DNA of 55,341 nucleotides from a virus (lineage: Duplodnaviria; Caudoviricetes), in the IMG/VR virus record IMGVR_UViG_3300032213_001903, positions 1-55,341 of that record. The stretch is one strand, 5' to 3'. The notes under the pieces were generated by a model. That model was not told the DNA's origin, did no database searches, and saw only the letters and a list, made by a program, of their open reading frames with translations. Made by a program: the position numbers and the translations under genes. Numbering within the stretch: the stretch's first letter is position 1; every line of letters begins with the position of its first letter. This document shows positions 4,163 to 47,131 of this stretch, piece by piece.

Positions 4163-4171
4163 GGAACAAAA

Positions 4172-5110
4172 ATGACACAATCAAAGAAAAAATATTATTT
4201 TATGGCTGGGCTTCCACGAAGCGGAAGTACAATGTTATCTGCTATATTAAATCAAAATCCAAGATTTTATTGTGGTCCAAGCTCTCCTGTAGTACCTACA
4301 ATGTTAACAATAGAAAACTCATTAAAACAAGATGAACTATTTTTGGCATATCCTAAGTATGATTTTGGTAAAAATTTAATTGCATCTGTTATTGACCAGT
4401 ACTATTATGATATCGAAAAGCCTGTAATTTTTGAAAAAAATCGCAGTTGGGTTCATAGAATGAATTATATTCAAGGATATTTTGAAATTGAGCATCCAAA
4501 AATACTTTATCCTGTGCGTGATGTTGCTGAAATTTTAGCATCATTTATTTCTATGATTAATAGAAATCCTGTTATTGTTAATGAAAGATTAAATTTTATC
4601 GATCAATCATTAGTGCAACAAGGAATTCCTATAAATGATGAAAACAGATGCAGAGCTATTGCGGGTCCGGGTATTCTTGGACAATCGTTTGATGGGTTGA
4701 AAAAAGCATTAGCTGAAGGCTATCGTGCAAACATACATTTTGTAGAATATAAAGATTTAGTAAATAAACCTAAAGAAACAATGAAAAAGATTTACGAGTT
4801 CTTAAAAGAACCTGAGTATAATCATGATTTTAAAAATCTAGTAAATGTTCACAGAGAAGATGATGCTAGTATTTATGGGTTCACTGACATGCATGAAGTG
4901 CGTTCTGAAGTAAAATCAACCGCACTTCCACCAGAAGAGGTGTTACATAAAAACATCTTAGATATGTGTAAAGATTCTGAATTTTGGAGACAAATTGATG
5001 ATGTACCGTTGACAGATGAAACAGTAGACACTATTTCAAAAGTTAAACCCAAAGAAAGCTTTTTTGGACATACTGTAGACGAAGATAGTGATGATGTTAG
5101 ATTGATTTAA
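4172..5110 (+). CDS. Sulfotransferase family protein
   Basis: GLPRSGSTML PAPS-binding loop, VRD..EILAS, VEYKDL. Confidence 0.85.
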   Translation: MTQSKKKYYFMAGLPRSGSTMLSAILNQNPRFYCGPSSPVVPTMLTIENSLKQDELFLAYPKYDFGKNLIASVIDQYYYDIEKPVIFEKNRSWVHRMNYIQGYFEIEHPKILYPVRDVAEILASFISMINRNPVIVNERLNFIDQSLVQQGIPINDENRCRAIAGPGILGQSFDGLKKALAEGYRANIHFVEYKDLVNKPKETMKKIYEFLKEPEYNHDFKNLVNVHREDDASIYGFTDMHEVRSEVKSTALPPEEVLHKNILDMCKDSEFWRQIDDVPLTDETVDTISKVKPKESFFGHTVDEDSDDVRLI

Positions 5111-7004: not shown

Positions 7005-9326
7005 ATGCAAATATTAGTCACAAAACGAAACGGAACAAAAGAGACACTCACACTAGAAAAATGGCAATCTCAGGTGGCAAAAGTGTGCAATGGGATAGCT
7101 GATGTAAGTCCATCAATGATTGAAATTCGCAGTAATCCGCACTTTTACGATGGTATTAGTACACGAGAAATCGATGAAATTACATTACGAGCAATAGTTG
7201 ATTTAATTGATGTAGAGTCTAATCCAGACTTGGGTCATATTAATTATCAATATGTTGCTGGTAAAATGCGTTTAGGAATGCTGCGCAAAGATGTTTACGG
7301 GAAATATGAACCGCTAACTCTATACGAAATTGTAAAAAAGAATGTTAGTATTGGATTGTATACCAAAGAATTACTAGAATGGTATACTGAAGATGATTGG
7401 AACAAGATGAACGATATGCTTGATCATTCTAAAGATGAACAATATAGTTACGCAGCAATCGAACAACTGATTGAAAAATATCTAGTAAGAAATCGCTCAA
7501 CAAAGGAAATTTATGAAACTCCACAAATTAGATACATGGTCGCAGCAGCTACTGTCTTTCATAAAGAGGAACCCAACAGTGCTAGAATGCGATATATCAA
7601 AGAATATTATAACGCCGCTAGTGACGGTTTATTTACTTTGGCTACTCCTGTGCTTGCTGGTCTCGGTACTCCTACCAAGCAGTTTAGTTCCTGTGTTCTC
7701 ATTCGCAGTGATGATGACCTTGATAGCATTTTTGCTAGCGGGGAAATGATGGCTAAATATGCCAGTAAACGCGCTGGCATAGGTTTAGAGATCGGTAGAT
7801 TAAGACCTCTTGGTAGTCCCATCAGGGGCGGAGAGATCATGCACACTGGCATGATCCCTTTTCTAAAAAAATGGTTTGGTGATTTACGCAGTTGTTCACA
7901 AGGGGGAATTCGCAATGCTAGTGCTACTGTATTTTATCCTATTTGGCATCATCAGTTTGATGATCTTATCGTCCTTAAGAACAATCAAGGAACAGAAGAA
8001 ACCCGAGTCCGTCATATGGATTATGGGGTTGTGCTTAGTGCTTTCTTCTGGAGAAGATTCAAAAACAAAGAAAACATAACATTCTTTGATCCTAATGAGG
8101 TACCCGATCTTTATGAAGCTTTTTATAGCAACACAAAACTTTTTGAAGAACTTTATGTTAAGTACGAAAAACAAAAAGGACTTAGAAAAAAAGTCATAGC
8201 TGCTGAAGAAGTTTTTAAAGGGGGAGTTCTAAAAGAAAGAACCGACACTGGTCGTATATATCTAGTGTTCATTGATAATGTAATGAATCAAGGCCCATTT
8301 GATTCAGAATATCATACCATTTATCAGAGTAACTTATGCTGTGAAATACTATTGCCCACTAAACCATTCAAGAGACTTGATGATCCAGAAGGAAGAATTG
8401 CATTATGTACACTTGGATCAATCAACTGGGGAGCTTTCCGTAATCCAGAAGACATGCGCCGCGCTTGCAGGATTCTTCATCGCAGTCTTAATAACATTTT
8501 AGACTATCAAGATTTCTTGAGCATTCAAAGTAAATTATCTAACGATGAAATTCGCCCATTAGGTATAGGTGTTACTAACTTAGCATACTGGCATGCTAAA
8601 CGCAATTTTAAATACGGAGAAAAAGACTCACTACAAGAAGTTAAAAGTTGGATGGAACATCAGGCGTTTTATCTTACAGAGGCTAGTACAGAACTAGCGC
8701 AAGAACGCGGCCGTTGTATTGATAGTGATAATACTTATTATGGTAAGGGTATATTTCCTTGGGAACGAAGAGCCAATGGAGTAAATGAACTCGCAGATTT
8801 TACACCTGACTCAAGTTTAAATTGGGAAAATCTTCGTAATCAGATGAAAACATACGGTGTCAGAAATGCTACACAAATGGCTATTGCTCCTGTAGAATCT
8901 AGTAGTGTAGTGATTAATTCAACGAATGGTATTGAAATGCCAATGAGTTTGATTTCCGTGAAAGAAAGTAAAGCAGGATCATTTGTACAAGTTGTACCTG
9001 AATATCAAAAATTAAAAAACAAATATCAATTAATGTGGGAACAAAAAGATTGTGATGCATATTTGAAAACCAGTGCTGTGTTACAGGTATATGTAGATCA
9101 AAGTATTTCTACCAATACATTCTATAATCCTGCACACTTTAATGATCGTAAAGTTCCTACAACTCTTATTGCTAAAAACTTAATGAATTTTTATTACTGG
9201 GGAGGTAAAACATTGTACTACTCATTAATAAATAAACAAGGTTCTAAATCAGAGGATCCAATAAATTCACCATTACAAGAAATTAATTATGATGAAGAAG
9301 AAGCTTGCGAAGCTTGCACACTTTGA
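7005..9326 (+). CDS. nrdA: Ribonucleotide reductase class Ia alpha subunit
   Basis: ATP-cone VTKRNG, FSSC, SNLCCEI, APVESSS, C-terminal CEAC. Confidence 0.97.
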   Translation: MQILVTKRNGTKETLTLEKWQSQVAKVCNGIADVSPSMIEIRSNPHFYDGISTREIDEITLRAIVDLIDVESNPDLGHINYQYVAGKMRLGMLRKDVYGKYEPLTLYEIVKKNVSIGLYTKELLEWYTEDDWNKMNDMLDHSKDEQYSYAAIEQLIEKYLVRNRSTKEIYETPQIRYMVAAATVFHKEEPNSARMRYIKEYYNAASDGLFTLATPVLAGLGTPTKQFSSCVLIRSDDDLDSIFASGEMMAKYASKRAGIGLEIGRLRPLGSPIRGGEIMHTGMIPFLKKWFGDLRSCSQGGIRNASATVFYPIWHHQFDDLIVLKNNQGTEETRVRHMDYGVVLSAFFWRRFKNKENITFFDPNEVPDLYEAFYSNTKLFEELYVKYEKQKGLRKKVIAAEEVFKGGVLKERTDTGRIYLVFIDNVMNQGPFDSEYHTIYQSNLCCEILLPTKPFKRLDDPEGRIALCTLGSINWGAFRNPEDMRRACRILHRSLNNILDYQDFLSIQSKLSNDEIRPLGIGVTNLAYWHAKRNFKYGEKDSLQEVKSWMEHQAFYLTEASTELAQERGRCIDSDNTYYGKGIFPWERRANGVNELADFTPDSSLNWENLRNQMKTYGVRNATQMAIAPVESSSVVINSTNGIEMPMSLISVKESKAGSFVQVVPEYQKLKNKYQLMWEQKDCDAYLKTSAVLQVYVDQSISTNTFYNPAHFNDRKVPTTLIAKNLMNFYYWGGKTLYYSLINKQGSKSEDPINSPLQEINYDEEEACEACTL

Positions 9327-9335
9327 GGTAAACAC

Positions 9336-10448
9336 ATGTCACACGCACAGTATAATTTAAAAACAAAAACAGACTACTTATCAAGAAAAATGTTCTTGGA
9401 TCCAGCTGGACCAGTAACTATTCAACGATTTGAAGAAGTTAAGTATAACAAGCTAGTAAAATACGAACAGACCGCTCGTGGATTTTTCTGGGTACCAGAA
9501 GAAATATCATTAACTAAAGATGCACAAGATTTTAAAGATGCAAGTGAAACTGTTAAGCACATTTTTACAAGTAATTTATTAAGACAAACCGCTCTTGATA
9601 GTTTGCAAGGGCGCGGCCCAAGTCAAATCTTTACGCCTGTTGTAAGTTTACCTGAACTAGAAGCATTAGTCTATAACTGGACCTTCTTTGAAACTAATAT
9701 TCATAGTCGCAGTTACAGTCACATTATTCGTAACATCTATAATGTTCCCAAAGAAGTATTCAATACAATTCACGACACTAACGAAATTGTTGATATGGCA
9801 AGTAGTGTAGGTAAATATTACGATGATTTACATAGACTAAACTCTTTGAAAGAAATTAGTGACCTTACAAAAGAAACAGTATTAGAAACGGCACACATTA
9901 AAGCAATTTATCTAGCACTACACGCAAGCTATGCCTTAGAAGCATTCCGTTTCATGGTATCATTCGCTACAAGTTTAGCAATGGTTGAAAACAAAATCTT
10001 TATCGGTAATGGCAACATTATCAGCTTAATTTTACAAGATGAAATACTGCACAAAGAATGGACAGCTTTCTTGATTAACCAAGTAGTTAAAGAAGATAGT
10101 CGTTTTGCTAAAGTTGCAGAAGAATGCAAACAAGAAGTTTATAACATTTATATGGATGTTATCCGTGAAGAAAAAGAATGGGCTAAGTATCTATTCAAGT
10201 TTGGTCCTGTTATTGGGCTAAATGCAAATATATTATGTGATTTTGTAGACTATACTGCAAAAAATGCACTTCATGAAATAGGCATTAAATATAGTCAGCC
10301 GGCCCCTAAGTCTACCCCTATTCCATGGTTCAATAAGCATACTAATTCTTCTAATAAACAATCCGCTCTACAAGAAACTGAGAGTACGAATTATGTTATA
10401 GGAGTTATGTCTGCTGATTTGAATTACGATGAATTACCCAACTTATAA
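9336..10448 (+). CDS. nrdB: Ribonucleotide reductase class Ia beta subunit
   Basis: FFWVPEE, ETNIHSRSY, DEILH, QETE..Y motifs. Confidence 0.97.
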   Translation: MSHAQYNLKTKTDYLSRKMFLDPAGPVTIQRFEEVKYNKLVKYEQTARGFFWVPEEISLTKDAQDFKDASETVKHIFTSNLLRQTALDSLQGRGPSQIFTPVVSLPELEALVYNWTFFETNIHSRSYSHIIRNIYNVPKEVFNTIHDTNEIVDMASSVGKYYDDLHRLNSLKEISDLTKETVLETAHIKAIYLALHASYALEAFRFMVSFATSLAMVENKIFIGNGNIISLILQDEILHKEWTAFLINQVVKEDSRFAKVAEECKQEVYNIYMDVIREEKEWAKYLFKFGPVIGLNANILCDFVDYTAKNALHEIGIKYSQPAPKSTPIPWFNKHTNSSNKQSALQETESTNYVIGVMSADLNYDELPNL

Positions 10449-15968: not shown

Positions 15969-16523
15969 ATGAAAACAGTAGGACAGAAACTAGAAAAATT
16001 TGCCGTTACCGGCGTCAACCCAGGTAAAGATGATTTCTTTACTATCACAGAAGAATCATTTCAAGGTAAGTGGAAAGTAATTGTCTATTACCCAAAGGAC
16101 TTTACATTTGTATGCCCAACTGAAATTGTTGCATATGATAAGTTATTCCAAGACTTTGCTGACCGTGATGCAGTATTGCTAACTGGTTCTACAGACAACG
16201 AGTTTTGTAAACTAGCATGGCAAAAAGCACACCCTGATCTTTCTAAGATTAAGCACATTCAATTTGCTGATACTGCCCGTCATCAAAGTGGTGAAGAGCG
16301 TGGTGGTGTAAGTTTGATTGAACAACTTGGTGTATTCTATGCGCCAGCAGGCGCTGCACTCCGTGCAACATTTATTGTTGACCCAAATAATGAAATTCAA
16401 CATGTAACTGTTAACAACTTGAATGTTGGTCGCAGTCCAGAAGAAACATTGCGTATTCTTGACGCATTACAAACTGGTGAACTATGCCCATGCAGTCGTC
16501 CAATAGGTGGCGATACACTGTAA
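15969..16523 (+). CDS. ahpC: Peroxiredoxin AhpC
   Basis: YPKDFTFVCPTE, GELCP; AGGAG RBS. Confidence 0.95.
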   Translation: MKTVGQKLEKFAVTGVNPGKDDFFTITEESFQGKWKVIVYYPKDFTFVCPTEIVAYDKLFQDFADRDAVLLTGSTDNEFCKLAWQKAHPDLSKIKHIQFADTARHQSGEERGGVSLIEQLGVFYAPAGAALRATFIVDPNNEIQHVTVNNLNVGRSPEETLRILDALQTGELCPCSRPIGGDTL

Positions 16524-16533
16524 TAGGCATACA

Positions 16534-17682
16534 ATGATAGATCCAAGACTTGAAATTGCTTTGCTCAATGAGAGTATTAGACAAACTAACACAATTGAAC
16601 TAATTGCTAGCGAAAACTATACCAGTCAAGCAGTTATGGATCTATGTGGTAGTATACTGACTAATAAGTATGCCGAAGGCCTTCCGGGTCGTCGGTATTA
16701 CAATGGTTGCACTAATGTAGATGAAATTGAAAACATTGCCATTGAGTATGCTACTAAGTTGTTCGGCTGCAAGTTTGCTAATGTACAACCACATTCAGGT
16801 GCTAATGCTAATTTAGCAGTACTCAAAGCTTTTTTGAACATGGGTGACACTGTGGTGGGGATGGACTTAGCATCAGGAGGACATTTGAGTCATGGTGCTA
16901 AAGTTAATATCAGTGGTAGCTGGTTTTTTAGTCATAGCTATGGAGTTAATTCACATGGTTTTATTGACTACGATAAAGTAGCACAGTTAGTTTGGGAAAC
17001 AAGACCTAAACTAGTTATTGCTGGAGCCAGTGCATATAGTCAAGTAATTGATTGGGCTAAGTTTGAAGAAATTGCTGCCAGTGTAGGTGCTATTCTATTA
17101 GCTGATATTGCTCATTACTCAGGATTGATTGTAGGCGGTGAGTATCCAAATCCGTTCCCACACGCAGATGTAGTCACTACCACAACACACAAAGGCTTGC
17201 GTGGCCCCAGGGGCGGATTAATATTATGGAATGATCCTGATCATACCAAGCGTATAAACAGTGCTGTGTTTCCTGGTACTCAAGGCGGACCATTAATGCA
17301 TATTATTGCAGGTAAAGCACAATGTTTTTACGAAGCACTACAGCCTGAGTTTAAACAATATGCTAAACAGATACGAATTAATGCTGACGCAATGGCAGAT
17401 GCTTTCATTCAATCAGGTGTTAATGTAGTAAGTGGTGGAACTAAATGCCATATGTTTACTATAGACTTGACTAATGAAAGACTTAGTGGTCGTGAATATG
17501 CTGACCGTCTAGAACAAAATGGTATCATAGCTAATAAAAATGGTGTTCCGGGTGAGAAACGCAGCTTTGCTGAAACATCGGGTGTGCGTATCGGAGTAGC
17601 CGCGGAAACAACTCGTGGTCATGATGAACAATGGTTTCGTGAGTTAGCCACCCGAATGATATCTATTTTAAGGGCTGTATAA
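16534..17682 (+). CDS. glyA: Serine hydroxymethyltransferase
   Basis: LIASEN, NKYAEG, GGHLSHG, TTTHKGLRGPRGG. Confidence 0.96.
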   Translation: MIDPRLEIALLNESIRQTNTIELIASENYTSQAVMDLCGSILTNKYAEGLPGRRYYNGCTNVDEIENIAIEYATKLFGCKFANVQPHSGANANLAVLKAFLNMGDTVVGMDLASGGHLSHGAKVNISGSWFFSHSYGVNSHGFIDYDKVAQLVWETRPKLVIAGASAYSQVIDWAKFEEIAASVGAILLADIAHYSGLIVGGEYPNPFPHADVVTTTTHKGLRGPRGGLILWNDPDHTKRINSAVFPGTQGGPLMHIIAGKAQCFYEALQPEFKQYAKQIRINADAMADAFIQSGVNVVSGGTKCHMFTIDLTNERLSGREYADRLEQNGIIANKNGVPGEKRSFAETSGVRIGVAAETTRGHDEQWFRELATRMISILRAV

Positions 17683-24069: not shown

Positions 24070-25824
24070 TCAAAAATTCAAGAAATCTTTAGCATAGTTA
24101 TATTCACTCCATGTCTCTAGAAATTTTTCTTTATCTGGACAATCTTTCATAGTGTCTTCGACTATACCCCAATTTCTTGCTACTAGACTATGCATATCAG
24201 CCGAGCCAACTAAAATTTTTCCACTCGCACTATCCATAGCGTTTATTCTGTATTTTGAAAAATTTGATATTCTTGTTTCTAAAATAATTTTAAAATCATT
24301 AGTTTCAACTAATCTGTCTATTAATGCTTTTAAATATTTCCAGTTAACATCTATCCAACCCCAAGCCGGCCATTTAGTTCTACTTAACAATGCTCGATAT
24401 AATTGGTCAAACACCATCATTGTCACGATATCTCGTTCACTGGCAGTGCTAGTAGAAAGAACCATTTCAGTCATTATCTCTGGGTCACTCGCATTATAAA
24501 CATCTAGTACTGAGTTTTGTTTTGGCTTCATATCAATGATATCAAATACCACTCCGCTTTCTACTTTGTATTTTTCTTTATAATCTGCATCATATGCTAC
24601 AGGAGCATTGACTAAAATATGAAATGAGTAACTTCTAGGTACAAATCCATTACTATAAATTTCATTTAATGTTTCTAAATATGATTTTAGTGATTGTCCT
24701 GGTAACCCAACTATAATTTCTACATAAATCTTTTTTAATCCATGTGATTCATTATATTTTCTATACATTGAATGCGCAAAGTTTTTCTGATCTTCCCAGC
24801 TTCCTGGTCTGTGTATCGCATCAAGTACATCTTTATTAACATCCTGTGCGCTTAATTTTATCCACCAGCGGGATAATTTATACTTAATGATTAGTTCTAA
24901 TATTTCTTTAGTAGTGTTACTAAAATTTTTGTTTAAGTTATAAAGATAGTATTTAAATTCATGTCCATTTTGATTATGTTCGATTACTCTTTTAGTTATA
25001 GCTAGATCATCTTCCCACATACCAAAATTAGCATCTGCTAGATATAAATTATACATCTGATGTTTGGCCATAAAATCAATATCGTCTAAAAAATTTATTT
25101 TCCTCTTCTGTGTTTTATTACTTTGCCCACCATTCCAATCACAGAATGTACAGTGAAACGGACAACCTCTACTAGTCTCATATATCCAGGCTAGACTAAC
25201 ATTTGGTTTGGTTTTATAAAATTCTATTAATTCTACCACTAAATCTTCACATTCACGATATGGGCTAAAATGAATACCACGAACAAATTCATAGTTGTAT
25301 GATGTTTGAGTAGATTTAATATCATCCTTATTTTTTATGAAATGAACTATGTTTGAATCTTCCGAAGAAATTTGACGGGCGCCAATAAAGTCTAGTGCTA
25401 AACTAGCCCAAGCTTTCTCCCCCTGTCCAATGACATAGTGATCTATAAAAGGATATTTAGTATACCAGTCTTGATTGACAGCATCACAACTTGGTCCTCC
25501 AGCTACTATTTTGATTGAATCCTGAAAGTAGTCTTTAACTGCCTTAATTTGATCAAAAATACTTCTAACATTCCATAAATACAAGCTTACACAGAGTATA
25601 TTTGCATTTTGTTCTTTGATATAACTTATTAATTCTTGGTTTGTAGCAGTATGTATAATACTAGGTGCCCACTGAACCATATCTTTGTACAATGGATAAT
25701 TTACTTTGAAATAACTATGCAAATAATATGGAGTTGGATTTACGAATATATTCTCATTATTTAATGCTGAATAGTTAGCACTGTTACCTGGCGGAGAATA
25801 AAATACAACTTTTATAGTTTTCAT
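24070..25824 (-). CDS. B12-binding radical SAM protein
   Basis: SLYLWN..IVAGGP..GQGE cobalamin-binding domain; ETSRGCPFHCTFCDW; DANFG; GLPGQ. Confidence 0.9.
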   Translation of the reverse strand: MKTIKVVFYSPPGNSANYSALNNENIFVNPTPYYLHSYFKVNYPLYKDMVQWAPSIIHTATNQELISYIKEQNANILCVSLYLWNVRSIFDQIKAVKDYFQDSIKIVAGGPSCDAVNQDWYTKYPFIDHYVIGQGEKAWASLALDFIGARQISSEDSNIVHFIKNKDDIKSTQTSYNYEFVRGIHFSPYRECEDLVVELIEFYKTKPNVSLAWIYETSRGCPFHCTFCDWNGGQSNKTQKRKINFLDDIDFMAKHQMYNLYLADANFGMWEDDLAITKRVIEHNQNGHEFKYYLYNLNKNFSNTTKEILELIIKYKLSRWWIKLSAQDVNKDVLDAIHRPGSWEDQKNFAHSMYRKYNESHGLKKIYVEIIVGLPGQSLKSYLETLNEIYSNGFVPRSYSFHILVNAPVAYDADYKEKYKVESGVVFDIIDMKPKQNSVLDVYNASDPEIMTEMVLSTSTASERDIVTMMVFDQLYRALLSRTKWPAWGWIDVNWKYLKALIDRLVETNDFKIILETRISNFSKYRINAMDSASGKILVGSADMHSLVARNWGIVEDTMKDCPDKEKFLETWSEYNYAKDFLNF

Positions 25825-26814: not shown

Positions 26815-26867
26815 AGGATCGGTTCAGCAATTAAAAAAACTTTATATGAAAAAATTAAAAGCGTCCT
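26815..26867 (+). ncRNA. CAGCAA-clamp RNA #1 (short, degenerate; overlaps 5' end of the tRNA-Arg-like gene)
   Basis: AGGATCG-GTT-CAGCAA ... CG-TCCT. Confidence 0.5.
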
Positions 26868-27384: not shown

Positions 27385-28062
27385 ATGCACTACCAAATGT
27401 TAACTTGTAAATTTTGTGGTAAAGAATGTAAGAATGAAAACTCATTGAGGAATCATCAAAGATTATGCAAGAGTAATCCTGAACGACAACAGAGTCCTTT
27501 TGAGAAGAAAGAAATTCAAGAAAATAGAAAAAGATCAAATCAATTTTTAAAAGCAAAATCTTTGGGTATTGACTATGTAATTTCAGACGAAACTAGGAAT
27601 AAATTTAAAGAATTAGCTGTTAGAACTTGGACCGATGAAAAGCGTAGGGAACATTCTGAGTGGATGAAAATACAAGCACAACGAAATTTGAATAATCACC
27701 CAGATTCATATCTATCCAAGAATATATTCGGTCGTTCTAAAAAAACACTGTACAAAAATGAATGGATGCATAGTTCATGGGAACTAGAATTTGCGATGTG
27801 GTTGGATTCGATTCAAGTTGAATGGACTAAAAAAGTTCCGTATTTTACTTATGATTGGGATGGCTCGGTTCGTAGATACTTTCCTGATTTCTATTTGAAA
27901 GAATTTGATTTATATGTAGAAATTAAAGGATATCAAACAGATCGTGATCTTGTTAAATGGAAATGTATTCCTAATTTAGCGATAGTTAAAGAAAAAGAAA
28001 TTAAGGCAATTAAAGAAAAAAAGTTTGAATTGTCGCAATTGTTAAATGGTAAGGTACCTTAA
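27385..28062 (+). CDS. Putative homing endonuclease: zinc finger + PD-(D/E)xK (TnsA-like) nuclease
   Basis: CKFC...H..LC; SSWE..FA..LD; YFPDFYL...YVEIKG; 3' end overlaps the next tRNA. Confidence 0.8.
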   Translation: MHYQMLTCKFCGKECKNENSLRNHQRLCKSNPERQQSPFEKKEIQENRKRSNQFLKAKSLGIDYVISDETRNKFKELAVRTWTDEKRREHSEWMKIQAQRNLNNHPDSYLSKNIFGRSKKTLYKNEWMHSSWELEFAMWLDSIQVEWTKKVPYFTYDWDGSVRRYFPDFYLKEFDLYVEIKGYQTDRDLVKWKCIPNLAIVKEKEIKAIKEKKFELSQLLNGKVP

Positions 28063-28223: not shown

Positions 28224-28297
28224 GCCCCTTTAGTTAAAAAGTATAACACTGTGCTGATAACGCAGAGTCGGAGGAGCGTTACCTCCCGGGGGTACCA
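28224..28297 (+). tRNA. tRNA-Ile(GAT)
   Basis: Loop CTGATAA; atypical T-loop AGCGTTA. Confidence 0.85.
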
Positions 28298-28303
28298 AGT
28301 TTT

Positions 28304-28367
28304 AGGATGCGTTCAGCAACTTTAATACATTAGACTTTTAATCTAAACCGTAAAAAAGCATCCTGTT
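28304..28367 (+). ncRNA. CAGCAA-clamp RNA #2 carrying a Lys(UUU) anticodon stem-loop
   Basis: AGGATGC/GCATCCT-GTT clamp, GTTCAGCAA, internal TTAGA-CTTTTAA-TCTAA. Confidence 0.8.
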
Positions 28368-28380
28368 ATTTTTGACCTTT

Positions 28381-28498
28381 AGGTTCTTTTCAGCAATTTA
28401 AATAATCTTTCTGGAAAAAAGAGGGTCTGGGTTCGAATCCCAGCACTAGGTTGGTCTCTAGTGTGGTGTAATGGTAGCACGAAAAAAGAGAACCTGTT
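28381..28498 (+). ncRNA. CAGCAA-clamp RNA #3 carrying a circularly permuted tRNA (YrlA-like)
   Basis: AGGTTCT/AGAACCT-GTT clamp; anticodon arm TCTTT-CTGGAAA-AAAGA, T-arm CTGGG-TTCGAAT-CCCAG, loop-closed acceptor CACTAGG/TCTAGTG, D-arm GTGT-AATGGTA-GCAC. Confidence 0.85.
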
Positions 28499-28500
28499 AT

Positions 28501-28575
28501 ATTCCGTGAGGCAGCTGGAGTGGCCGATAGTCCTTCAAACTATTGAGATGGGATCAAAACCCATACGGAATACCA
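28501..28575 (+). tRNA. Atypical tRNA (loop CCTTCAA: Glu TTC, or shifted TCA)
   Basis: ATTCCGT/ACGGAAT acceptor, ATAGT/ACTAT stem, T-loop ATCAAAA, CCA. Confidence 0.65.
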
Positions 28576-28583
28576 AATTTTAT

Positions 28584-29369: not shown

Positions 29370-29445
29370 CTCTCTATAGCGTAACTTGGTAGCGTTCCTG
29401 GTTTGGGGCCAGGCGGTCGGGGTTCAAATCCTCGTGGGGAGACCA
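29370..29445 (+). tRNA. tRNA-Pro(TGG)
   Basis: Loop TTTGGGG, C1-G72, A73. Confidence 0.9.
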
Positions 29446-29449
29446 GTTT

Positions 29450-29566
29450 AGGGATACATACAGCAAATTCTATCCAAACGATAGGTAGTTGGTTCGATTC
29501 CAACATTACGCACATGCGTGATTAGCTCACTCGGTAGAGCATTCGTCTTAAAGACTGTATCCCGTT
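29450..29566 (+). ncRNA. CAGCAA-clamp RNA #4 carrying a circularly permuted tRNA (YrlA-like)
   Basis: GGGATACA/TGTATCCC-GTT clamp; CTATC-CAAAC-GATAG, T-arm GTTGG-TTCGATT-CCAAC, closed acceptor ATTACGC-ACAT-GCGTGAT, D-arm GCTC-ACTCGGTA-GAGC. Confidence 0.85.
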
Positions 29567-29572
29567 TTACAT

Positions 29573-29648
29573 AGTCGATTAGTTCAGTGGTATGAACGCT
29601 ACATTGACACTGTAGAGGTCAGTGGTTCGACTCCACTATCGACTACCA
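29573..29648 (+). tRNA. tRNA-Val(GAC)
   Basis: Loop TTGACAC. Confidence 0.93.
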
Positions 29649-30174: not shown

Positions 30175-30735
30175 ATGGCTGTTCTAGCACTAGATATTTC
30201 GGGAGTTCCCCGGCAATGGATTTCGCATGATGATGCAATTACTTACCATGCAAAAAATGCAGTAGCATGGGCATTGGGTGAAGTAGTGGCTAAATATCGC
30301 GGCGGTGTTCAAAATGACGGAGAAATGAGTTATCTAGAAACTTCTAGCATAATTGCTATTAAAGGTCATGGTTTTAACCCACACAAACATGCTACTGTTG
30401 CATTGAGTAATAGAACATTGTTTGGTCGTGATCGTTATATTTGTGCATATTGCGGTGGGCATTTTCCTAATTATCACAATCTAAGCCGTGATCATATTAT
30501 GCCTAAAAGTCGCGGTGGTGAAAACATTTGGACAAATGTGGTAACCGCATGTAAGGATTGTAATGCTAAAAAAGGTCACAAACTTTTAAAAGAATGTAGC
30601 ATGGAATTGCTTTATGTTCCTTATGTGCCAAATCACTATGAAAATATGATTCTACAAAATCGTACAATCCTTGCAGATCAAATGGAATATTTGCTTGCTG
30701 GAGTACCAAAGCATAGTAGAATTTTATTGTCGTAA
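30175..30735 (+). CDS. HNH endonuclease (McrA-like)
   Basis: RDRYICAYCG, DHIMPKSRGG..W.NVVTACKDCN..KG. Confidence 0.9.
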   Translation: MAVLALDISGVPRQWISHDDAITYHAKNAVAWALGEVVAKYRGGVQNDGEMSYLETSSIIAIKGHGFNPHKHATVALSNRTLFGRDRYICAYCGGHFPNYHNLSRDHIMPKSRGGENIWTNVVTACKDCNAKKGHKLLKECSMELLYVPYVPNHYENMILQNRTILADQMEYLLAGVPKHSRILLS

Positions 30736-31812: not shown

Positions 31813-31948
31813 AGTAATAGGGAGAGTCGCTGCGAAGCGTATTCTTAAACGACCCGTAGAACTCCCGGGCGTCCCCAAGTAAGTTTTTGGTGACATGACA
31901 GATTTCAAATCTTACTTACAAATGATAAATACATTTAGGAGTAAGATT

Positions 31949-32374
31949 GTGAAACAAAACCATACTAACAAATTTACGGATGCTGATTTAATAGCACAAT
32001 ACAAGTTAACACCCACTTTAAGTAAACTTTCTCATTTTTTTAATGTACCTGATGTAACAGTCTGGCGCAGAGCAAAAAAATTAGGATTAGAATTTAAGAT
32101 AGGTGGTGCTAATGCTAAAATGCCTTTATCAGAGATTTTAGAAGGAAAGCATCCACAATATCAAAGTAATAAATTAAAAAACAGACTTATTAATGAAGGT
32201 ATAAAAGAAAATAAATGCGAAGAATGTGGTATTACTGAATATCAAGGTAAGCCTTTAGTGATGCAGTTAGATCACATAGACGGTAATACACATAATCATT
32301 TATACAGTAATTTAAAACTACTATGTCCAAACTGTCATTCTCAGACAGTAACATGGTGTGGTAAAAACAAATAA
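31949..32374 (+). CDS. HNH homing endonuclease
   Basis: CEECG, LDHIDGN..N...NLKLLCPNCHSQT; AGGAG before GTG 31949. Confidence 0.88.
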   Translation: MKQNHTNKFTDADLIAQYKLTPTLSKLSHFFNVPDVTVWRRAKKLGLEFKIGGANAKMPLSEILEGKHPQYQSNKLKNRLINEGIKENKCEECGITEYQGKPLVMQLDHIDGNTHNHLYSNLKLLCPNCHSQTVTWCGKNK

Positions 32375-32880: not shown

Positions 32881-33091
32881 TTTGTAAGTGTCAGCAAGAG
32901 AAAGTCACGCTATCTAGGTAAGTTCGAACTACCAAAATAGTAGAAGGTGACGGGTTCGACTCCCGGCCGATCGGAAGATCGGTGCAGATTGGTTGCTAAC
33001 TGGACCGGTATCCCAAGTGGCGTATCTTGACCCAGCCGGCTTAATTACATGGGAAAATGGTAGCGATATGAGGGACGCTACTACTTACAAA
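32881..33091 (+). ncRNA. CAGCAA-clamp RNA #5 (~210 nt) with permuted tRNA-like module
   Basis: TTTGTAAGT/ACTTACAAA clamp, GTCAGCAA; CGGG-TTCGACT-CCCG, GCCGATC-GGAA-GATCGGT, GCA-GATTGGT-TGC. Confidence 0.7.
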
Positions 33092-36182: not shown

Positions 36183-36258
36183 TGCGGCGTAGAGAAATGG
36201 CATCTCATCGGTCTCATAAGCCGAAGGTAGTTGGTTCGATTCCAACCGTTCGCAACCA
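36183..36258 (+). tRNA. tRNA-Met(CAT), initiator-like
   Basis: TGCGG../..CGCA-ACCA, GAG/CTC D-stem, loop CTCATAA. Confidence 0.85.
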
Positions 36259-37524: not shown

Positions 37525-37697
37525 AGGATCGGTACAGCAACCATACTTATTACATGGACTGCTACACTTACCCTGTTACTAGCTGGAGCCTTAATTGGCT
37601 TTGAAGGTTGGTAACAATGCGCAAGCAAGGATCGTGTAGATAGAGGAGTTTCGATAAGTCTCCTCGATAAAAACAAAAAGTAGACAACGATCCTGTT
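37525..37697 (+). ncRNA. CAGCAA-clamp RNA #6 (~170 nt)
   Basis: AGGATCG-GTA-CAGCAA ... CGATCCT-GTT; inner CTACAC/GTGTAG, GTTACTAGC/GTTGGTAAC, GAGGAG/CTCCTC helices. Confidence 0.8.
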
Positions 37698-37703
37698 AAA
37701 CTT

Positions 37704-37936
37704 GGGATGTGTTCAGCATTTTAAACAACTTGATTACTGCTATTGAAGGTGGTCGAAGGACACAATAGAAATATTGTTCTAGTAATAGAAACTGATGGAA
37801 TAGATGACAGATTGGAAAGACAGCCTATGTTGTTAGTAGCAGACACAATTACTAACTAGACAACATGAATTGTTGGTATGGTCTGAGTAGCATAATTGGT
37901 CAGACCAGAAAATAAAAAAACTGCTACGAACATCCC
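37704..37936 (+). ncRNA. CAGCAA-clamp RNA #7 (~230 nt)
   Basis: GGGATGT-GTT-CAGCAT ... ACATCCC; inner ATGTTG.TTAGTA/TACTAA..CAACAT, TGGTCTGA/TCAGACCA helices. Confidence 0.75.
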
Positions 37937-37952
37937 GCTAACCCAAAACACA

Positions 37953-37981
37953 TTTACATTATATCTGAAATCAGTTATAAT
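37953..37981 (+). promoter_or_regulatory. Sigma70 promoter for clamp RNA #8 and the DUF2828-like gene
   Basis: TTTACA-17-TATAAT. Confidence 0.75.
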
Positions 37982-37989
37982 ACATTTTT

Positions 37990-38046
37990 AGGATGCATTC
38001 AGCAATCTTTAATACTTTTCATAATAGTAAAAAAGCGCATCCTGTT
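37990..38046 (+). ncRNA. CAGCAA-clamp RNA #8 carrying a CAU anticodon-like hairpin, in the 5' leader of the DUF2828-like gene
   Basis: AGGATGC-ATT-CAGCAA ... TACT-T-TTCATAA-T-AGTA ... GCATCCT-GTT. Confidence 0.8.
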
Positions 38047-38074: not shown

Positions 38075-39496
38075 ATGCAATTCGCCGAAGCAGTAATGAA
38101 CCAAGAAGTCCGTACTACTAATGGTATGAAGGCTCGCAAGTCAACAGCAAACGCCTGTGTTGATTTGTTTTATAACATCGGTGCAAGCCGAGGTAAAAAC
38201 ATCATCCCAGCATTTACTGCGGCATATGTAGAAAACTCTGATCTAGCATTGCGTATCGCCCAATGGGCGCGTGATGCGCGTGGGGGTTCAGGTGAACGAG
38301 AATTGTTCCGACAAATCTTGTCTTACTTGGAAGTAGCTAATCCAACAGACGCTAGCCGTCTATTGGCTAAGGTTCCTGAATTGGGACGCTACGATGACTT
38401 GTTTGTTTTTAAGACTAAGAATCTTAAAACACAGGCATACACTATGTTGGGCGATGCATTGCGTAACCGTAATGGATTGGCTGCAAAGTGGACCCCACGA
38501 AAGGGCGATGTTGCACGAGAAATTCGTGAATTCTTTGGTATGACTCCAAAGCAATATCGTAAGAGCCTTGTTGCATTGACCAATGTCGTTGAAACACAAA
38601 TGTGTGCCAACGATTGGGACAATATCAACTATAGTCATGTACCATCCGTGGCACATGCACGATACAAGAAGGCTTTTGGTCGTCATGGTACAACTTATGC
38701 AGAGTATGTAACCAAGTTGGTTAAGGGTGAAGCTGGTGTTAAAATTAACGCTGGTGCAGTATTCCCTTACGATGTATTGAAGGGTGCTATCAACAAGTAC
38801 AGCCGTAGTTCAATGACTAAGACTGAGTTGGATGCATTGCAAGCTCAATGGGACGCATTGCCGAACTTCATTGGTGATAGTAATGTTTTACCAATGGTTG
38901 ACAGTTCAGGTTCTATGACTTGTGCCGCAGGTGGACCTTCTTCAAAGAGTGGTTTGACTTGTTTGGATGTTGCAATCTCATTGGGATTGTATTTTGCAGA
39001 CAAGAACACTGGTAAGTTCAAGGATACTTTCTTGACTTTCAGTCGCACTCCTAAGTTGGTTAACCTTAAGGGTAATATCAATCAAAAGATTGATCAAATG
39101 AACACTGGTGAAGTTGCTAACACCGACTTGAACAAGGCGTTTGATTTGATCCTTAAGACTGCTGTAGATAACAGTGTGCCTCAAGCAGAAATGCCTGAAA
39201 CTCTTGTGATCTTCAGTGACATGCAGTTTGATCAAGGTGTTGACCATGATGACAGTGCTATCGAAATGATTGCACGAAAGTACAAGCTTGCAGGTTACGA
39301 ACTTCCAAAGGTCGTATTCTGGAACTTGAACGCCGCATACGGCAACAGTCCAGTTAAGTTTAACAAGGCAGGTGTTGCGCTAGTCTCAGGATTTAGCCCA
39401 GCAGTTGCACAAGGTATGCTTAGTGGTAACATGGATGACTTCACCCCAGAAGCAATCATGCTGAAGACCGTTATGAAGGATCGTTATTCAGTTTAA
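38075..39496 (+). CDS. DUF2828-like TROVE/vWA protein (Ro60/Rsr-related RNA-binding protein)
   Basis: T.NG..A, WARDARGGSGER, GRYDD, AAKWTPRKG, VETQMCAN.W..INYS.VPS; vWA MIDAS DSSGS..NTD..SDMQFD; VVFWNL, LVSGFSP; AAAGGAG RBS. Confidence 0.85.
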   Translation: MQFAEAVMNQEVRTTNGMKARKSTANACVDLFYNIGASRGKNIIPAFTAAYVENSDLALRIAQWARDARGGSGERELFRQILSYLEVANPTDASRLLAKVPELGRYDDLFVFKTKNLKTQAYTMLGDALRNRNGLAAKWTPRKGDVAREIREFFGMTPKQYRKSLVALTNVVETQMCANDWDNINYSHVPSVAHARYKKAFGRHGTTYAEYVTKLVKGEAGVKINAGAVFPYDVLKGAINKYSRSSMTKTELDALQAQWDALPNFIGDSNVLPMVDSSGSMTCAAGGPSSKSGLTCLDVAISLGLYFADKNTGKFKDTFLTFSRTPKLVNLKGNINQKIDQMNTGEVANTDLNKAFDLILKTAVDNSVPQAEMPETLVIFSDMQFDQGVDHDDSAIEMIARKYKLAGYELPKVVFWNLNAAYGNSPVKFNKAGVALVSGFSPAVAQGMLSGNMDDFTPEAIMLKTVMKDRYSV

Positions 39497-39519
39497 CCAC
39501 TGATAATGATACTATCTTA

Positions 39520-39549
39520 AAATAGCACCCTTAGTGGTGCTATTTTTTT
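39520..39549 (+). terminator. Rho-independent terminator
   Basis: AAATAGCACC-CTTAGT-GGTGCTATTTTTTT. Confidence 0.85.
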
Positions 39550-44977: not shown

Positions 44978-47131
44978 ATGAAACTTCACAGTGCCGTTCA
45001 AAATGAAGCCATCGTTTCCAATGTAGGAGAGATTGGCGAGTTTAGAATTCGTAATTCGGCTAAAGCATTTAATATTCTATCTAGCGGTCTATATGCAAAT
45101 AAAATCCGTGCTATCATCCGTGAACTGAGTTGCAATGCCGTTGACAGCCATGTTGCCGCAGGTAAACAGGATACTCCCTTTGATGTTCATCTGCCTAACG
45201 CACTGGAACCTTATTTTTCTATCCGTGACTATGGTACTGGTCTAAGCCACAATCAAGTCACCAATATCTATACTACTTATTTTGAATCCACCAAGACCGA
45301 TAGTAATGAATTTATCGGTGCGCTTGGTCTGGGTTCTAAGAGTCCATTCAGTTACACCGACAATTTTACTGTGACCGCAGTCAAGGATGGTCGCAAAGGT
45401 GTCTACACCGCCTTCATTAACGACCAAGGTGTGCCCAGTATCGCCCTAATGATGGAAGAACAAACCACTGACCCTGCAGGTGTCGAAGTGCGGTTTGCTG
45501 TAGATAGTCGCTATGATTTTGATAAGTTTCGTCAAGAGGCTCGTTATGTCTATGAATATTTCAAATTGCGCCCGGTGATTAAAGGCAGCGCAGATTTTAA
45601 ATTCACTGATCCCGAATACAAAGAAAAAGATATTATTCCCGGCGTACATAACATTGCAGGCAATCGCAGTTATGCAGTGATGGGAAATATCAAGTATCCT
45701 ATTGAAATTCCTAATGCAGAAAATAGTCTCGGTAAACTGCATACCTTGCTAGGTTGCGGCCTCGTCATGGAATTTAATATTGGTGAACTTGATTTCCAAG
45801 CAAGTCGTGAAGGTCTGAGTTATATCCCCGAAACGATTCAATCTATTAAGCGTAAACTTGAGGCACTGAATGGACAATTGTCTATTCATATTGCTAATGA
45901 AGCCAACAAGATTGAAAATCTGTGGGATCGTGCAGTGTATCTGTCTGTTCGGCACAATGAAAATCTTTGGTCTAATGCAGTAATCAAGTATGTTGCTGAT
46001 ACCAAGTTTGAATTATTTGATCCTCACACTAGTCGTTGGCAATATCTCAAACAATTCAAACTGGATGTGAAGGATCTTGAAAGTAAGTACAACATTGTTA
46101 TCCGCGGTTTTTCAAAATCTCGTGGTGTTGCTACTTGTACTAACCTTAAGTTTCATACAGGTTATCAACAAACTGCCAATGGTCAAGTCTTGCAACAAGA
46201 GTGGCACATCACTGTGTCTGAGGATGTGAACTTTGTTATCACTGATACCAAAGTTGGTGCGTTGGAGCGCAGTAAGTATCATTGGAAGAATATTCAGTTG
46301 ACCAAACATCACAACCATGTGTATGTTATTGAGGCTGCTGACAAAAACAAACCAATGAAAACTGATCAGTTTTTCAATGATATCTACAATCCTCCTGCAA
46401 GTAAAATCTTTGTAGCAAGCGATCTCTTACTGAAGGATCGTGCTAGTAGTCTAGGAAAGAATGTCACTATCCTGCATTTGGTGGAGGGCGCACGCCGTGG
46501 TCGTTGGAGTAGTTCTACCCCAATGGTTTGGCACGATGCTGGAAAAGCTGATAATTTTGATAGTAATGAAACCTATTATTATCTACCGCTTAGTGGCTTC
46601 AAGTGTTTGGGTCTTGTTGAAGATGTTAAAAATCTTCACCTTAATCTACAAAAGAGTGGTATCTTTACTTACACCATCTATGGTGTGCGTAAGAATGATC
46701 TAGAGTGGGTAAAACTACAAAAGAACTGGGTTAACCTTAACGAACATATCAAGGACAAACTCAGCAAAATGGGTAACGCAGATGTGATGGGTTTGGTTAA
46801 ACAGGCTATTGACTGGAAAGACCTTTATCAGTATAATGCTATCAAGCATGTAACGAATCCGAATAGTCCTTATGTTGTCCTGTTCAATACTTTTAAAGAT
46901 GTAAAAGTAGAAGATGGTAGCCGCAAAGTTCATCTTGAATGGTTGTGCAAAATGTATTCGGTACAAACTCAAGCAAATGTTGATCCGTCACAATTGATTG
47001 ATAAGTACACTAAGATGGTCGGAGATATTTACAAGCGTTACCCACTGTTGAAGCATATCAGCCGATACAGCGTCCAAGCAAACGATATTGCTGAATACAT
47101 TAATTTGATTGATTCTCACAAAGGAGTTTAA
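44978..47131 (+). CDS. rIIA: RIIA-like lysis inhibition/anti-exclusion protein
   Basis: GHKL ATPase: IRELSCNAVDSH, RDYGTGL, STK..IGALGLGSKSPF; upstream of rIIB. Confidence 0.9.
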   Translation: MKLHSAVQNEAIVSNVGEIGEFRIRNSAKAFNILSSGLYANKIRAIIRELSCNAVDSHVAAGKQDTPFDVHLPNALEPYFSIRDYGTGLSHNQVTNIYTTYFESTKTDSNEFIGALGLGSKSPFSYTDNFTVTAVKDGRKGVYTAFINDQGVPSIALMMEEQTTDPAGVEVRFAVDSRYDFDKFRQEARYVYEYFKLRPVIKGSADFKFTDPEYKEKDIIPGVHNIAGNRSYAVMGNIKYPIEIPNAENSLGKLHTLLGCGLVMEFNIGELDFQASREGLSYIPETIQSIKRKLEALNGQLSIHIANEANKIENLWDRAVYLSVRHNENLWSNAVIKYVADTKFELFDPHTSRWQYLKQFKLDVKDLESKYNIVIRGFSKSRGVATCTNLKFHTGYQQTANGQVLQQEWHITVSEDVNFVITDTKVGALERSKYHWKNIQLTKHHNHVYVIEAADKNKPMKTDQFFNDIYNPPASKIFVASDLLLKDRASSLGKNVTILHLVEGARRGRWSSSTPMVWHDAGKADNFDSNETYYYLPLSGFKCLGLVEDVKNLHLNLQKSGIFTYTIYGVRKNDLEWVKLQKNWVNLNEHIKDKLSKMGNADVMGLVKQAIDWKDLYQYNAIKHVTNPNSPYVVLFNTFKDVKVEDGSRKVHLEWLCKMYSVQTQANVDPSQLIDKYTKMVGDIYKRYPLLKHISRYSVQANDIAEYINLIDSHKGV

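Follow-up and report, generated by a model that had tools for sequence, protein, structure and literature searches.

A short element, here called E2, lies on the plus strand at positions 29451-29563 of a viral DNA record (IMG/VR record IMGVR_UViG_3300032213_001903, Caudoviricetes), the analysed stretch of which, 55,341 bases in all, is referred to as the window; the record is estimated to be about 16% complete. E2 is probably a phage Y RNA of the YrlA type, in which a terminal handle would dock the phage's own Ro60-like ring protein and a tRNA body would be presented. This is the most likely meaning of E2 given that the handle and a Ro60-like gene occur in the same window. Computation directly showed the fold with its covariation, the sharing of the handle, the neighbouring protein's Ro60 fold, and the linkage between RNA and gene in phages distant from one another. 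A first-pass annotation, made from the letters alone, had described a clamped, permuted tRNA with a shrunken anticodon loop; its account of the fold, the architecture, the lack of decoding and the likeness to YrlA has held, whereas it had missed the (U/A)CAGCAA tag, the sharing of the handle by other cargos and the Ro60-like gene. Y RNAs and Ro60 have been studied mainly in animals and in a few bacteria, and to our knowledge the job of the tRNA-like half of bacterial Y RNAs is still an open question.

E2 fills the 127-nt gap between tRNA-Pro (29370-29445) and tRNA-Val (29573-29648), within an array of 32 tRNA genes called by ARAGORN at 26.7-36.7 kb of the window. It is not itself among the 32 genes called, nor does it match any Rfam family at the gathering threshold (the 32 matches in the window at that threshold are all tRNA). 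The unconstrained minimum free energy (MFE) fold consists of exactly the helices that had been listed for E2, each in the place given for it, together with a small hairpin in the 3' linker (Table 1). Its free energy of -38.0 kcal/mol compares with -22.3 +/- 2.9 kcal/mol for 200 shuffled sequences, none of which folded as well (z = -5.35), and the fold exceeds chance. The terminal helix, or clamp, is an uninterrupted 8-bp helix without a bulge-helix-bulge, and the sequence after its 5' strand is UACAGCAAAU. Its parts follow one another as they would in a tRNA that had undergone circular permutation between D arm and anticodon arm. Both the T-loop TTCGATT and a D-loop GG, which are needed for the tRNA elbow, are present, and the elbow mimicry put forward in the first-pass annotation may apply. 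With a hairpin loop of 5 nt, E2 cannot be an ordinary decoding tRNA, in line with that annotation. A BLASTN search of phages with E2 alone returned 390 records with a maximum of 44% query cover, those listed being tRNAs or tRNA junctions, and close relatives of E2 came only from a structure-based pattern scan.

A pair of elements at 28.3-28.5 kb of the window (E0 and E1; Table 1) was found by BLASTN to recur in the phage BUCT-ZZ01 and in the Enterococcus phages VRE9_1-3 and H1. The stems covary among these relatives, and an invariant CAGCAA stands just past the 5' clamp strand. A scan of IMG/VR with the pattern CAGCAA, gap, GGTTCGA, gap, GGTAG gave at least 119 viral stretches. Among the matches listed, at least 52 nonredundant full elements (counting the two of the window and those of BUCT-ZZ01 and VRE9_3) passed a filter that required a clamp no shorter than 7 bp and, immediately following the T stem, a closed acceptor of 6 bp or more. 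The same pattern applied to one genome per bacterial and archaeal species gave 120 stretches, none of them a real member and none near the protein gene described below; as sampled, the family is viral. In an alignment (A1) of 26 of the 52 filtered elements, in which the filter favours the clamp and acceptor helices, RNAalifold predicted 24 pairs, 20 of them with compensatory changes. Paired cells amounted to 95.2%, against 63.1% with the 3' partners shuffled (0 of 500 shuffles as high) and 37-45% when the partners were slid by 1-3 columns. Double changes were seen in all eight clamp pairs and all seven acceptor pairs, while the T stem was 100% paired (three of five pairs compensatory) and the D stem likewise 100% paired. 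In a filter-free check, in which loci were picked via the protein gene only, a closed acceptor followed the T arm in 20 of 24 cases with an upstream CAGCAA and in 1 of 51 without. The low folding energy of E2 and this strong, family-wide covariation bear out the earlier suggestion of a selected fold.

A covariance model of the family (R1) gave E2 102.6 bits (E = 4.6e-20), compared with at most 33.6 bits for the tRNA-tRNA junctions of the window, and yielded 116 matches (E <= 0.001) in 100 loci, often with two or more per contig. CAGCAA is invariant in A1, although the search pattern demanded it, and was found in 18 of the 19 R1 matches of at least 57 bits outside the search pattern, a count that is somewhat biased because R1 rewards CAGCAA. 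A crude finder, which asked only for CAGCAA and some helix of 7-8 bp or longer inside 320 nt, was too noisy to be used for counts; control hexamers gave 65-120 plus-strand matches, against 344 for CAGCAA. E2 is best placed in a large and apparently undescribed family of phage Y-like RNAs. A literature search yielded no paper describing phage RNAs of the CAGCAA type or any RNA partner of a DUF2828 protein; Table S2 of Chen et al. (2014), covering 22 phages, was outside its scope and may include CAGCAA types.

The handle is common to all members: a 5' flank (U)UUA leads into a clamp with a purine start (AGG, AAG or AGA), followed by 0-3 nt and CAGCAA; a U/A-rich linker then precedes the cargo, and an A-rich stretch separates it from the clamp's 3' strand, which is followed by GUU. 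The consensus of the tag is (U/A)CAGCAA, and the 3' GUU flank is near-universal. In tRNA-type members the hairpin before the T arm often resembles a true anticodon arm; 41 of the 64 family hairpins with at least 4/5 stem pairs have 7-nt loops, many of the form YU-NNN-RA. The loop of the E1 subfamily is CU-NNN-AA, and its triplet varies between otherwise near-identical copies (loci L130, L020, L045, L054, L059, L066, L136, L137, L169, L173, L176-L181, L185, L194, L201, L202 and L009). The 20 distinct sequences carry GAA (7), GTA (4), GGA (4), GCG (2), GCA (1), ACG (1) and TAG (1), with a strong preference for G at the first position. This variation may reflect neutral drift under relaxed constraint, or it may be a selected switching of an anticodon-like triplet. 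In two further handles (L100:6596-6703, minus strand; L059:7693-7804, plus strand) the cargo is apparently in unpermuted tRNA order, with a D arm, an anticodon arm carrying CUUCUAA and a T arm, the clamp replacing the acceptor stem.

The nine distinct sequences of the E2 subfamily have hairpin loops of 4-6 nt that end in AAAC, for example CTATC-ATAAAC-GATAG, CTAAC-ATAAAC-GTTAG (a compensatory change) and one form with a 4-nt loop. Acceptor variants in the subfamily include AGTTGGC/GCCAATT, TTTACGC/GCGTGAA, ATTTCGC/GCGAGAT and ATTTTCC/GGAAGAT, compensatory changes are found in both the hairpin and the acceptor stem, and the hairpin of the 3' linker reads TTCG-TCAAA-CGAA or ATTC-GTCAA-GAAT in relatives. 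The 5-nt loop of E2 is therefore normal for its subfamily and no recent accident. The description of it as a shrunken anticodon loop does not fit these closest relatives, and the hairpin stands where the 'V' arm stands in YrlA (PMC4201824).

The proposed partner is encoded on the same strand at 38075-39496. The open reading frame (ORF) matched Pfam DUF2828 (2.8e-26) and DUF7788 (2.7e-42) as well as phrog_850, 'RNA-binding protein' (1.2e-141); NCBIfam had no family for the protein, and a search of the PDB with its single sequence gave no matches. An AlphaFold (AF2) model (pLDDT 82.3, pTM 0.83) predicts a helical-repeat ring followed by a C-terminal vWA domain with an intact MIDAS (the adhesion site that depends on a metal ion), the motif of which, DxSxS (D276, S278, S280), is invariant. 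When the model was compared with the PDB using Foldseek, the 13 best matches were all Ro60/TROVE structures (E 1.2e-8 to 1.1e-5, 503-569 aligned columns, TM score of ~0.4-0.6), comprising Xenopus and human Ro60, D. radiodurans Rsr, Thermus phage phiLo Ro60 and a 'Trove domain' entry. Later matches were isolated vWA domains (E >= 3.8e-3), and the only full-length structural matches were Ro60/TROVE entries. With a profile of 18 diverse homologues, the best PDB sequence matches were Ro60 vWA domains (E 0.0055). Furthermore, a single ORF of mycobacteriophage ET08 matches both phrog_850 (4.8e-140) and, above its cut-off, the TROVE hidden Markov model (HMM; 9.6e-23), and tblastn showed 33-34% identity to mycobacteriophage genes annotated 'Ro-like RNA binding protein'. 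From the fold matches, the MIDAS, the ET08 ORF and the annotated homologues, the protein is a divergent Ro60. The promoter-like site upstream of the gene (Table 1) is also visible in many relatives; such sites number 51 in the region against 46.9 in shuffles and are weak evidence alone. Proteins with DUF2828 and DUF7788 also occur in eukaryotes (Trebouxia, Vanrija, Cutaneotrichosporon and Fusarium), and in one metagenomic protein (P0121, 1148 aa) DUF2828/DUF7788 is fused to RecQ-type helicase domains (PF00270, PF00271, PF00570 and PF16124).

RNA and gene are linked well beyond the window. phrog_850 was found in all three records examined for it, namely the window and two complete phages reached through the RNA, and tblastn found the protein in 711 of 50,697 phage records, including phages of E. 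coli K-12 (Felixounavirus), Mycobacterium smegmatis, Listeria, Enterococcus and cyanobacteria. The gene was present in 24 of the 119 RNA-derived loci listed, each with a few kilobases of flank, often within 0.5 kb of the RNA and on the same strand, at protein identities of 24% to 93%. A protein-first search, of which the best 80 of 330 viral stretches were kept, provided 79 new loci. In these, 88 of 88 R1 matches were on the gene strand, and full tRNA-type members were found in 23 loci. A CAGCA[AT] handle lay within 140 nt of the start codon, just 5' of the ribosome-binding site, in 88 of the 98 loci whose upstream sequence reached 140 nt or more, a fraction that overstates the number of independent cases because many gene-derived loci are close kin (78-95% protein identity). 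The same pattern is shown by divergent loci, such as BUCT-ZZ01 (48% identity), VRE9_3 (35%), L097, L085, L027, L130, L101 and L068. In mycobacteriophage Snenia (L333 2453-4250) the Ro-like gene is followed by three CAGCAA handle RNAs, the middle one of tRNA type (R1 79.9 bits), and by a terminator-like hairpin. In the E. coli phage HY02 a tRNA-type member (R1 96.6 bits) lies in a tRNA array 0.9 kb downstream of the gene.

YrlA (RF02553) has been defined by GNCGAA(N0-1)G near its 5' end, by 'V', T, closed 'AS' and D arms, and by a TROVE gene that lies no more than 4 kb away on its own strand (PMC4201824). E2 has this layout, with a T arm, a loop-closed acceptor-like stem and a D arm in order within a stem formed by the ends. 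RF02553 was also the only non-tRNA family to match E2 at E < 0.01 (27.5 bits; partial alignment, positions 27-81), and YrlA was rightly chosen for comparison by the first-pass annotation. The score is below the gathering score of 69 bits, as are those of the published phage YrlA of ET08 (37.4 bits) and of the tRNA-type RNA of Snenia (39.3 bits). In ET08, GCCGAGAG and GCCGAAGG come immediately past the terminal stem's 5' strand, the very position that CAGCAA has in the handles. This position, together with the linkage, suggests that CAGCAA would be the counterpart of the presumed Ro-contact motif GNCGAA(N)G in an RNA-protein pair that has co-diverged.

If E2 is a YrlA-type Y RNA, it would be produced along with the tRNA array and then shortened as far as the terminal clamp. 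Together with the single-stranded (U/A)CAGCAA, the clamp would form the handle, a putative docking site for the Ro60-like protein, and the cargo would be a tRNA body in which a loop seals the acceptor end, the D and T arms can build the elbow and the hairpin is a non-decoding one. Through this module, which may be shown to enzymes that recognise the shape of tRNA, E2 would tether or gate the Ro60-like protein, as is thought for YrlA/Yrl with Rsr/Ro60 and PNPase. YrlA has been described as tethering Ro60 to PNPase and gating the Ro60 cavity (PMC4201824), and the phiLo Ro60, a Yrl RNA and the host PNPase as forming a RYPER-like complex that damps PNPase (PMC12135203); for some jumbo phages a role in RNA repair with a tRNA-like partner has been proposed (PMC7824862). 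The complex might act in RNA quality control or repair, or in countering a host attack on tRNA. It is the binding of the protein to the handle, the equivalence of CAGCAA and GNCGAA(N)G, the expression and processing of the RNA and the role of the complex that we infer.

Several observations weigh against this assignment, including the bias of R1 towards the tag and the kinship of the gene-derived loci mentioned above. The YrlA score of E2 (27.5 bits) is no better than those of tRNA-tRNA junctions in the window (25.6, 24.1 and 23.5 bits), and E2 lacks GNCGAA(N)G behind the 5' strand of its clamp. It shares its strand with the Ro60-like gene but lies 8.5 kb upstream of it, outside the 4-kb rule of Chen et al., whereas other handles of the window are 32 nt to 0.5 kb from the gene and the E2-type RNAs of relatives are 0.3-1.3 kb away (L027, L045 and L136). 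The TROVE HMM (PF05731), which was positive in the controls D. radiodurans and B. thetaiotaomicron, matched none of five records (the window, BUCT-ZZ01, VRE9_3, Snenia and HY02); this result at first pointed away from a link to Ro, a view overturned when the neighbouring ORF was compared with Pfam and PHROG and by fold. Of the window's ORFs, 40 were scanned, and neither an RNA-repair gene nor a PNPase gene was among them, the record representing ~16% of the genome. Seven sequencing runs came up, each with a small share; in the four that were examined, the only contig over E2 belongs to a run that is probably of DNA, which is no evidence for expression of E2. One metatranscriptome contig corresponds exactly to 28241-28367 and spans E0 only. 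No ends or joints were visible in these runs.

Other explanations of E2 have to be weighed against docking to a Ro60-like protein. A tRNA decoy or sponge that works without this protein, the sealed body misleading defence nucleases, RNase P or the CCA-adding enzyme while the clamp guards the ends, seems to us quite unlikely. It would suit the position of E2 inside a 32-tRNA array, the sister RNAs with real-looking 7-nt loops (CU-NNN-AA, with a varying triplet in E1) and the resemblance of the E0 cargo to a lysine anticodon arm. However, it leaves unexplained the invariant CAGCAA on cargos that are not tRNA-like and the tight linkage to the Ro60-like gene; moreover, since the hairpin loop has 4-6 nt in nine of nine subfamily sequences, the E2 hairpin mimics no anticodon. 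It is highly improbable that E2 is a permuted gene for a working tRNA, which would function as two pieces held by the clamp after RNase P has opened the acceptor loop, or be cut and rejoined at 26/27. The order of its parts is exactly that of a circularly permuted tRNA, the 7-nt loops of 41 of the 64 family hairpins (many YU-NNN-RA) would suit such a gene, and the YrlA of M. smegmatis is cut by RNase P and receives CCA (PMC4201824). Yet the loop of E2 has 5 nt, no CCA is encoded past the acceptor's 3' strand, no bulge-helix-bulge interrupts the plain helix of the clamp and the same handle bears cargos other than tRNA; nor did any of the papers listed in a literature search concern permuted tRNA genes of phages.

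The spacers of 4-9 nt by which the handle elements abut tRNAs, and the presence of one handle between the promoter-like site and the ribosome-binding site of the gene, agree with a signal for processing or regulation, in which clamps punctuate the tRNA transcript and the copy before the gene is an autoregulatory leader. For E2 this is very unlikely: pure cleavage needs no conserved, covarying T arm, sealed acceptor and D arm, and the idea of a leader suits the element at 37990 rather than E2 and still implies a protein that binds the handle. The copy before the gene may nevertheless have a leader or processing role. Finally, a functionless, decaying remnant of a tandem tRNA duplication that kept the 3' portion of one copy and the 5' portion of its successor would have the same arm order, and junctions of tandem tRNAs are known false positives of the YrlA model (Chen et al. 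2014, PMC4201824). This reading is contradicted by the covariation, in that compensatory changes occur in all four helices in phages of cyanobacteria, enterococci, mycobacteria and E. coli, and by the R1 scores (102.6 bits for E2, at most 33.6 bits for junctions), and we consider it extremely improbable.

At least eight handle RNAs with differing cargos are present in the window (Table 1). E1 has the same arm order as E2 with unrelated stem sequences, in agreement with the first-pass annotation, which had described the two as alike in arm order and different in sequence. Its fold signal is weaker than that of E2 (z = -2.22; 4 of 200 shuffles as good), and its homologues, found by BLASTN, are in the Synechococcus phage BUCT-ZZ01 and the Enterococcus phages VRE9. 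The homologue of E0 in BUCT-ZZ01 has a covarying clamp, AGGATGC/GCATCCT against AGGATGT/ACATCCT. The RNA at 32881-33091 has a 10-bp clamp, TTTGTAAGTG/TACTTACAAA, and a weak fold signal (z = -1.72), with 16.1 bits from the YrlA model. In the case of 37704-37936, the scripted pairing of helices gave the 5' arm another 3' arm.

Table 1. Positions of the parts of E2, the other handle RNAs and the features around the Ro60-like gene. Coordinates are those of the window except in the last row.
Feature	Position	Strand	Remarks
E2, clamp 5' strand GGGATACA	29451-29458	+	8 bp with 29556-29563 in MFE fold
E2, CAGCAA tag (ACAGCAA with A29460)	29461-29466	+	Predicted single-stranded; 2 nt past clamp
E2, hairpin CTATC-CAAAC-GATAG (V-arm or anticodon-arm position)	29470-29484	+	MFE fold
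E2, T arm GTTGG-TTCGATT-CCAAC	29488-29504	+	MFE fold, YrlA model alignment
E2, acceptor-like stem closed by loop, ATTACGC-ACAT-GCGTGAT	29505-29522	+	MFE fold
E2, D arm GCTC-ACTCGGTA-GAGC, preceded by TA at tRNA 8/9 position	29525-29540	+	MFE fold, YrlA model alignment
E2, 3' linker with small hairpin GTC-TTAAA-GAC	29542-29555	+	MFE fold
E2, clamp 3' strand TGTATCCC, then GUUUU	29556-29563	+	MFE fold
Probable handle RNA, plain hairpin cargo, AGGA(T)CG...CGTCCT, CAGCAA at 26825	26815-26867	+	Lower confidence; R1 19.1 bits, E 0.088; read by eye
E0, handle RNA, hairpin-only cargo TTAGA-CTTTTAA-TCTAA	28304-28364	+	RF01414 20.1 bits
E1, handle RNA, permuted tRNA cargo, 7-nt loop CU-GGA-AA	28381-28495	+	R1 126.2 bits
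Handle RNA, larger cargo with T arm and closed stem GCCGATC-GGAA-GATCGGT	32881-33091	+	CAGCAA at 32892
Handle RNA, ~170-nt cargo, AGGATCG...CGATCCT	37525-37694	+	CAGCAA at 37535
Handle RNA, ~233-nt cargo, GGGATGT...ACATCCC	37704-37936	+	Variant tag CAGCAT at 37714; read by eye
Promoter-like site TTTACA-17-TATAAT	37953-37981	+	11/12 consensus matches
Handle RNA, plain hairpin, AGGATGC...GCATCCT	37990-38043	+	CAGCAA at 38000; R1 33.0 bits; 32 nt 5' of Ro60-like gene
Ro60-like gene, 473 aa, DUF2828 + DUF7788, vWA with MIDAS	38075-39496	+	
Terminator-like hairpin past Ro60-like gene, 11-bp stem then T run	39519-39546	+	Weak evidence alone
Three handle RNAs of mycobacteriophage Snenia (Snenia coordinates)	3934-3988, 3996-4127, 4137-4195		

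Some further features of the window were observed. At 46752-46881 a handle-like arrangement (AGGACAA, 3 nt, CAGCAA...TTGTCCT GTT) lies within a 717-aa ORF (44978-47131) and may be due to chance. The stretch 28497-28583 is tRNA-like by eye, with an 8-bp acceptor TATTCCGT...ACGGAATA, then CCA, and an odd anticodon region CCTTCAA, and is called by neither ARAGORN nor Rfam. Two Rfam tRNAs, at 28224-28294 (41.4 bits) and 36184-36254 (51.2 bits), are missing from the ARAGORN list. The array also holds two HNH endonuclease genes and one PHROG 'endonuclease' (30175-30735, 31895-32374 and 27385-28062). Auxiliary metabolic genes of the window (24070-25824 on the minus strand, 16507-17682, 7005-10448 and others) encode a B12-binding radical SAM protein, a serine hydroxymethyltransferase, both ribonucleotide reductase subunits, two fatty-acid desaturase-like proteins, a sulfotransferase and a peroxiredoxin.

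If the assignment of E2 as a YrlA-type Y RNA is true, a second, sequence-divergent branch of Ro60 with its own RNA tag exists in 711 of 50,697 phage records and would offer tractable phage systems for asking what the Ro-Y particle does during infection. The many cargos carried on one handle, especially the tRNA-like ones with a varying triplet, might reveal the targets of the particle in the cell. RNA genes of this kind in phage tRNA arrays are left unannotated by tRNA finders and Rfam.

Apart from the tRNA and YrlA models, RF01414 (the Dictyostelium Class I RNA model) was the only Rfam family that repeatedly touched handles. Its consensus consists of a 6-bp stem, CCUUACAGCAA (the 11-nt motif), a U/A-rich part, an A-rich part, the stem and UG. 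Its scores were 20.1 and 17.0 bits within the window, 27.1-29.3 bits for handles that precede the gene in three further loci, and 24.4 bits for HY02. None of the handles scored (17-29.3 bits) came up to the gathering score of 41.5, E2 had no RF01414 match at E <= 10, and the handles have 6-7 of the 11 letters of the motif of the Class I RNAs of Dictyostelium. Avesson and co-workers are said to have found, in 2011, four proteins associated with Class I RNA. According to Kjellin et al. (2021, PMC7919456), Class I RNAs are 42-65 nt long and have a covarying stem, an 11-nt motif by the 5' strand, an AAG start and a CUGU end; they have their own promoters, the binder reported is the RNA-recognition-motif protein Rnp1A, and they are given as occurring only in Dictyostelia. 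The phage handles share with them a short covarying terminal stem, a motif ending in ACAGCAA after the 5' strand and a variable middle (PMC7919456). The handles also start with AGG/AAG/AGA and end with CUGU(U), and the hairpin-only ones are 54-61 nt long. In contrast, Class I RNAs are eukaryotic and no Ro-like partner is known for them (PMC7919456), and E2 is twice as long, has a tRNA-like cargo and is borne by a phage. The likeness is a resemblance only and a speculative lead. It is unlikely, although conceivable, that the entire DUF2828/DUF7788 branch of Ro60-like proteins uses the handle for recognition, with the abundant Class I RNAs as eukaryotic Y-like members and the phage handle as a general adaptor by which one ring protein carries many cargos, including tRNA bodies whose triplets are swapped between near-identical copies.

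In the permuted tRNA genes of red and green algae and of Thermofilum, the 3' half precedes the 5' half with a short spacer between the acceptor strands, and maturation into decoding tRNAs takes place by bulge-helix-bulge cutting and ligation. E2 is similar in that the 3' half of its tRNA body lies ahead of the 5' half, with a short spacer, but differs in having no bulge-helix-bulge, in its hairpin loop of 5 rather than 7 nt and in its bacterial-virus context. The stable RNAs rnaC and rnaD of phage T4, judged by eye, have another layout, without a clamp plus CAGCAA and without the permuted order.

The closest comparison is with the Ro60-Y RNA systems. The window protein is predicted to resemble Ro60/Rsr/TROVE proteins (PDB entries 1yvp, 2i91, 2nvo, 9l5y and 9nen) in its ring and vWA/MIDAS fold, whereas it is only 11-16% identical to them, has 473 aa rather than ~500-540 and is negative with PF05731. 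On the RNA side, phage examples of YrlA-type RNAs are already known (PMC4201824; PMC12135203), and E2 shares with YrlA and with Yrl1 and Yrl2 of phage phiLo a terminal stem formed by the ends, then a short single-stranded motif, a hairpin (the 'V' arm), and the T, closed acceptor and D arms. Like them, it shares its strand with the gene of a ring protein of the Ro60 type, and a shorter sister RNA that lacks the cargo (YrlB-like) is often present. Unlike YrlA and the Yrl RNAs, however, the phage family has the handle motif (U/A)CAGCAA instead of GNCGAA(N0-1)G or CGAA, and its putative partner belongs to the DUF2828/DUF7788 branch. In addition, its handle RNAs lie inside large tRNA arrays, up to 11 kb from the gene and at least eight to a window, with varied cargos, and many of the sisters of E2 keep a canonical 7-nt anticodon-like loop.

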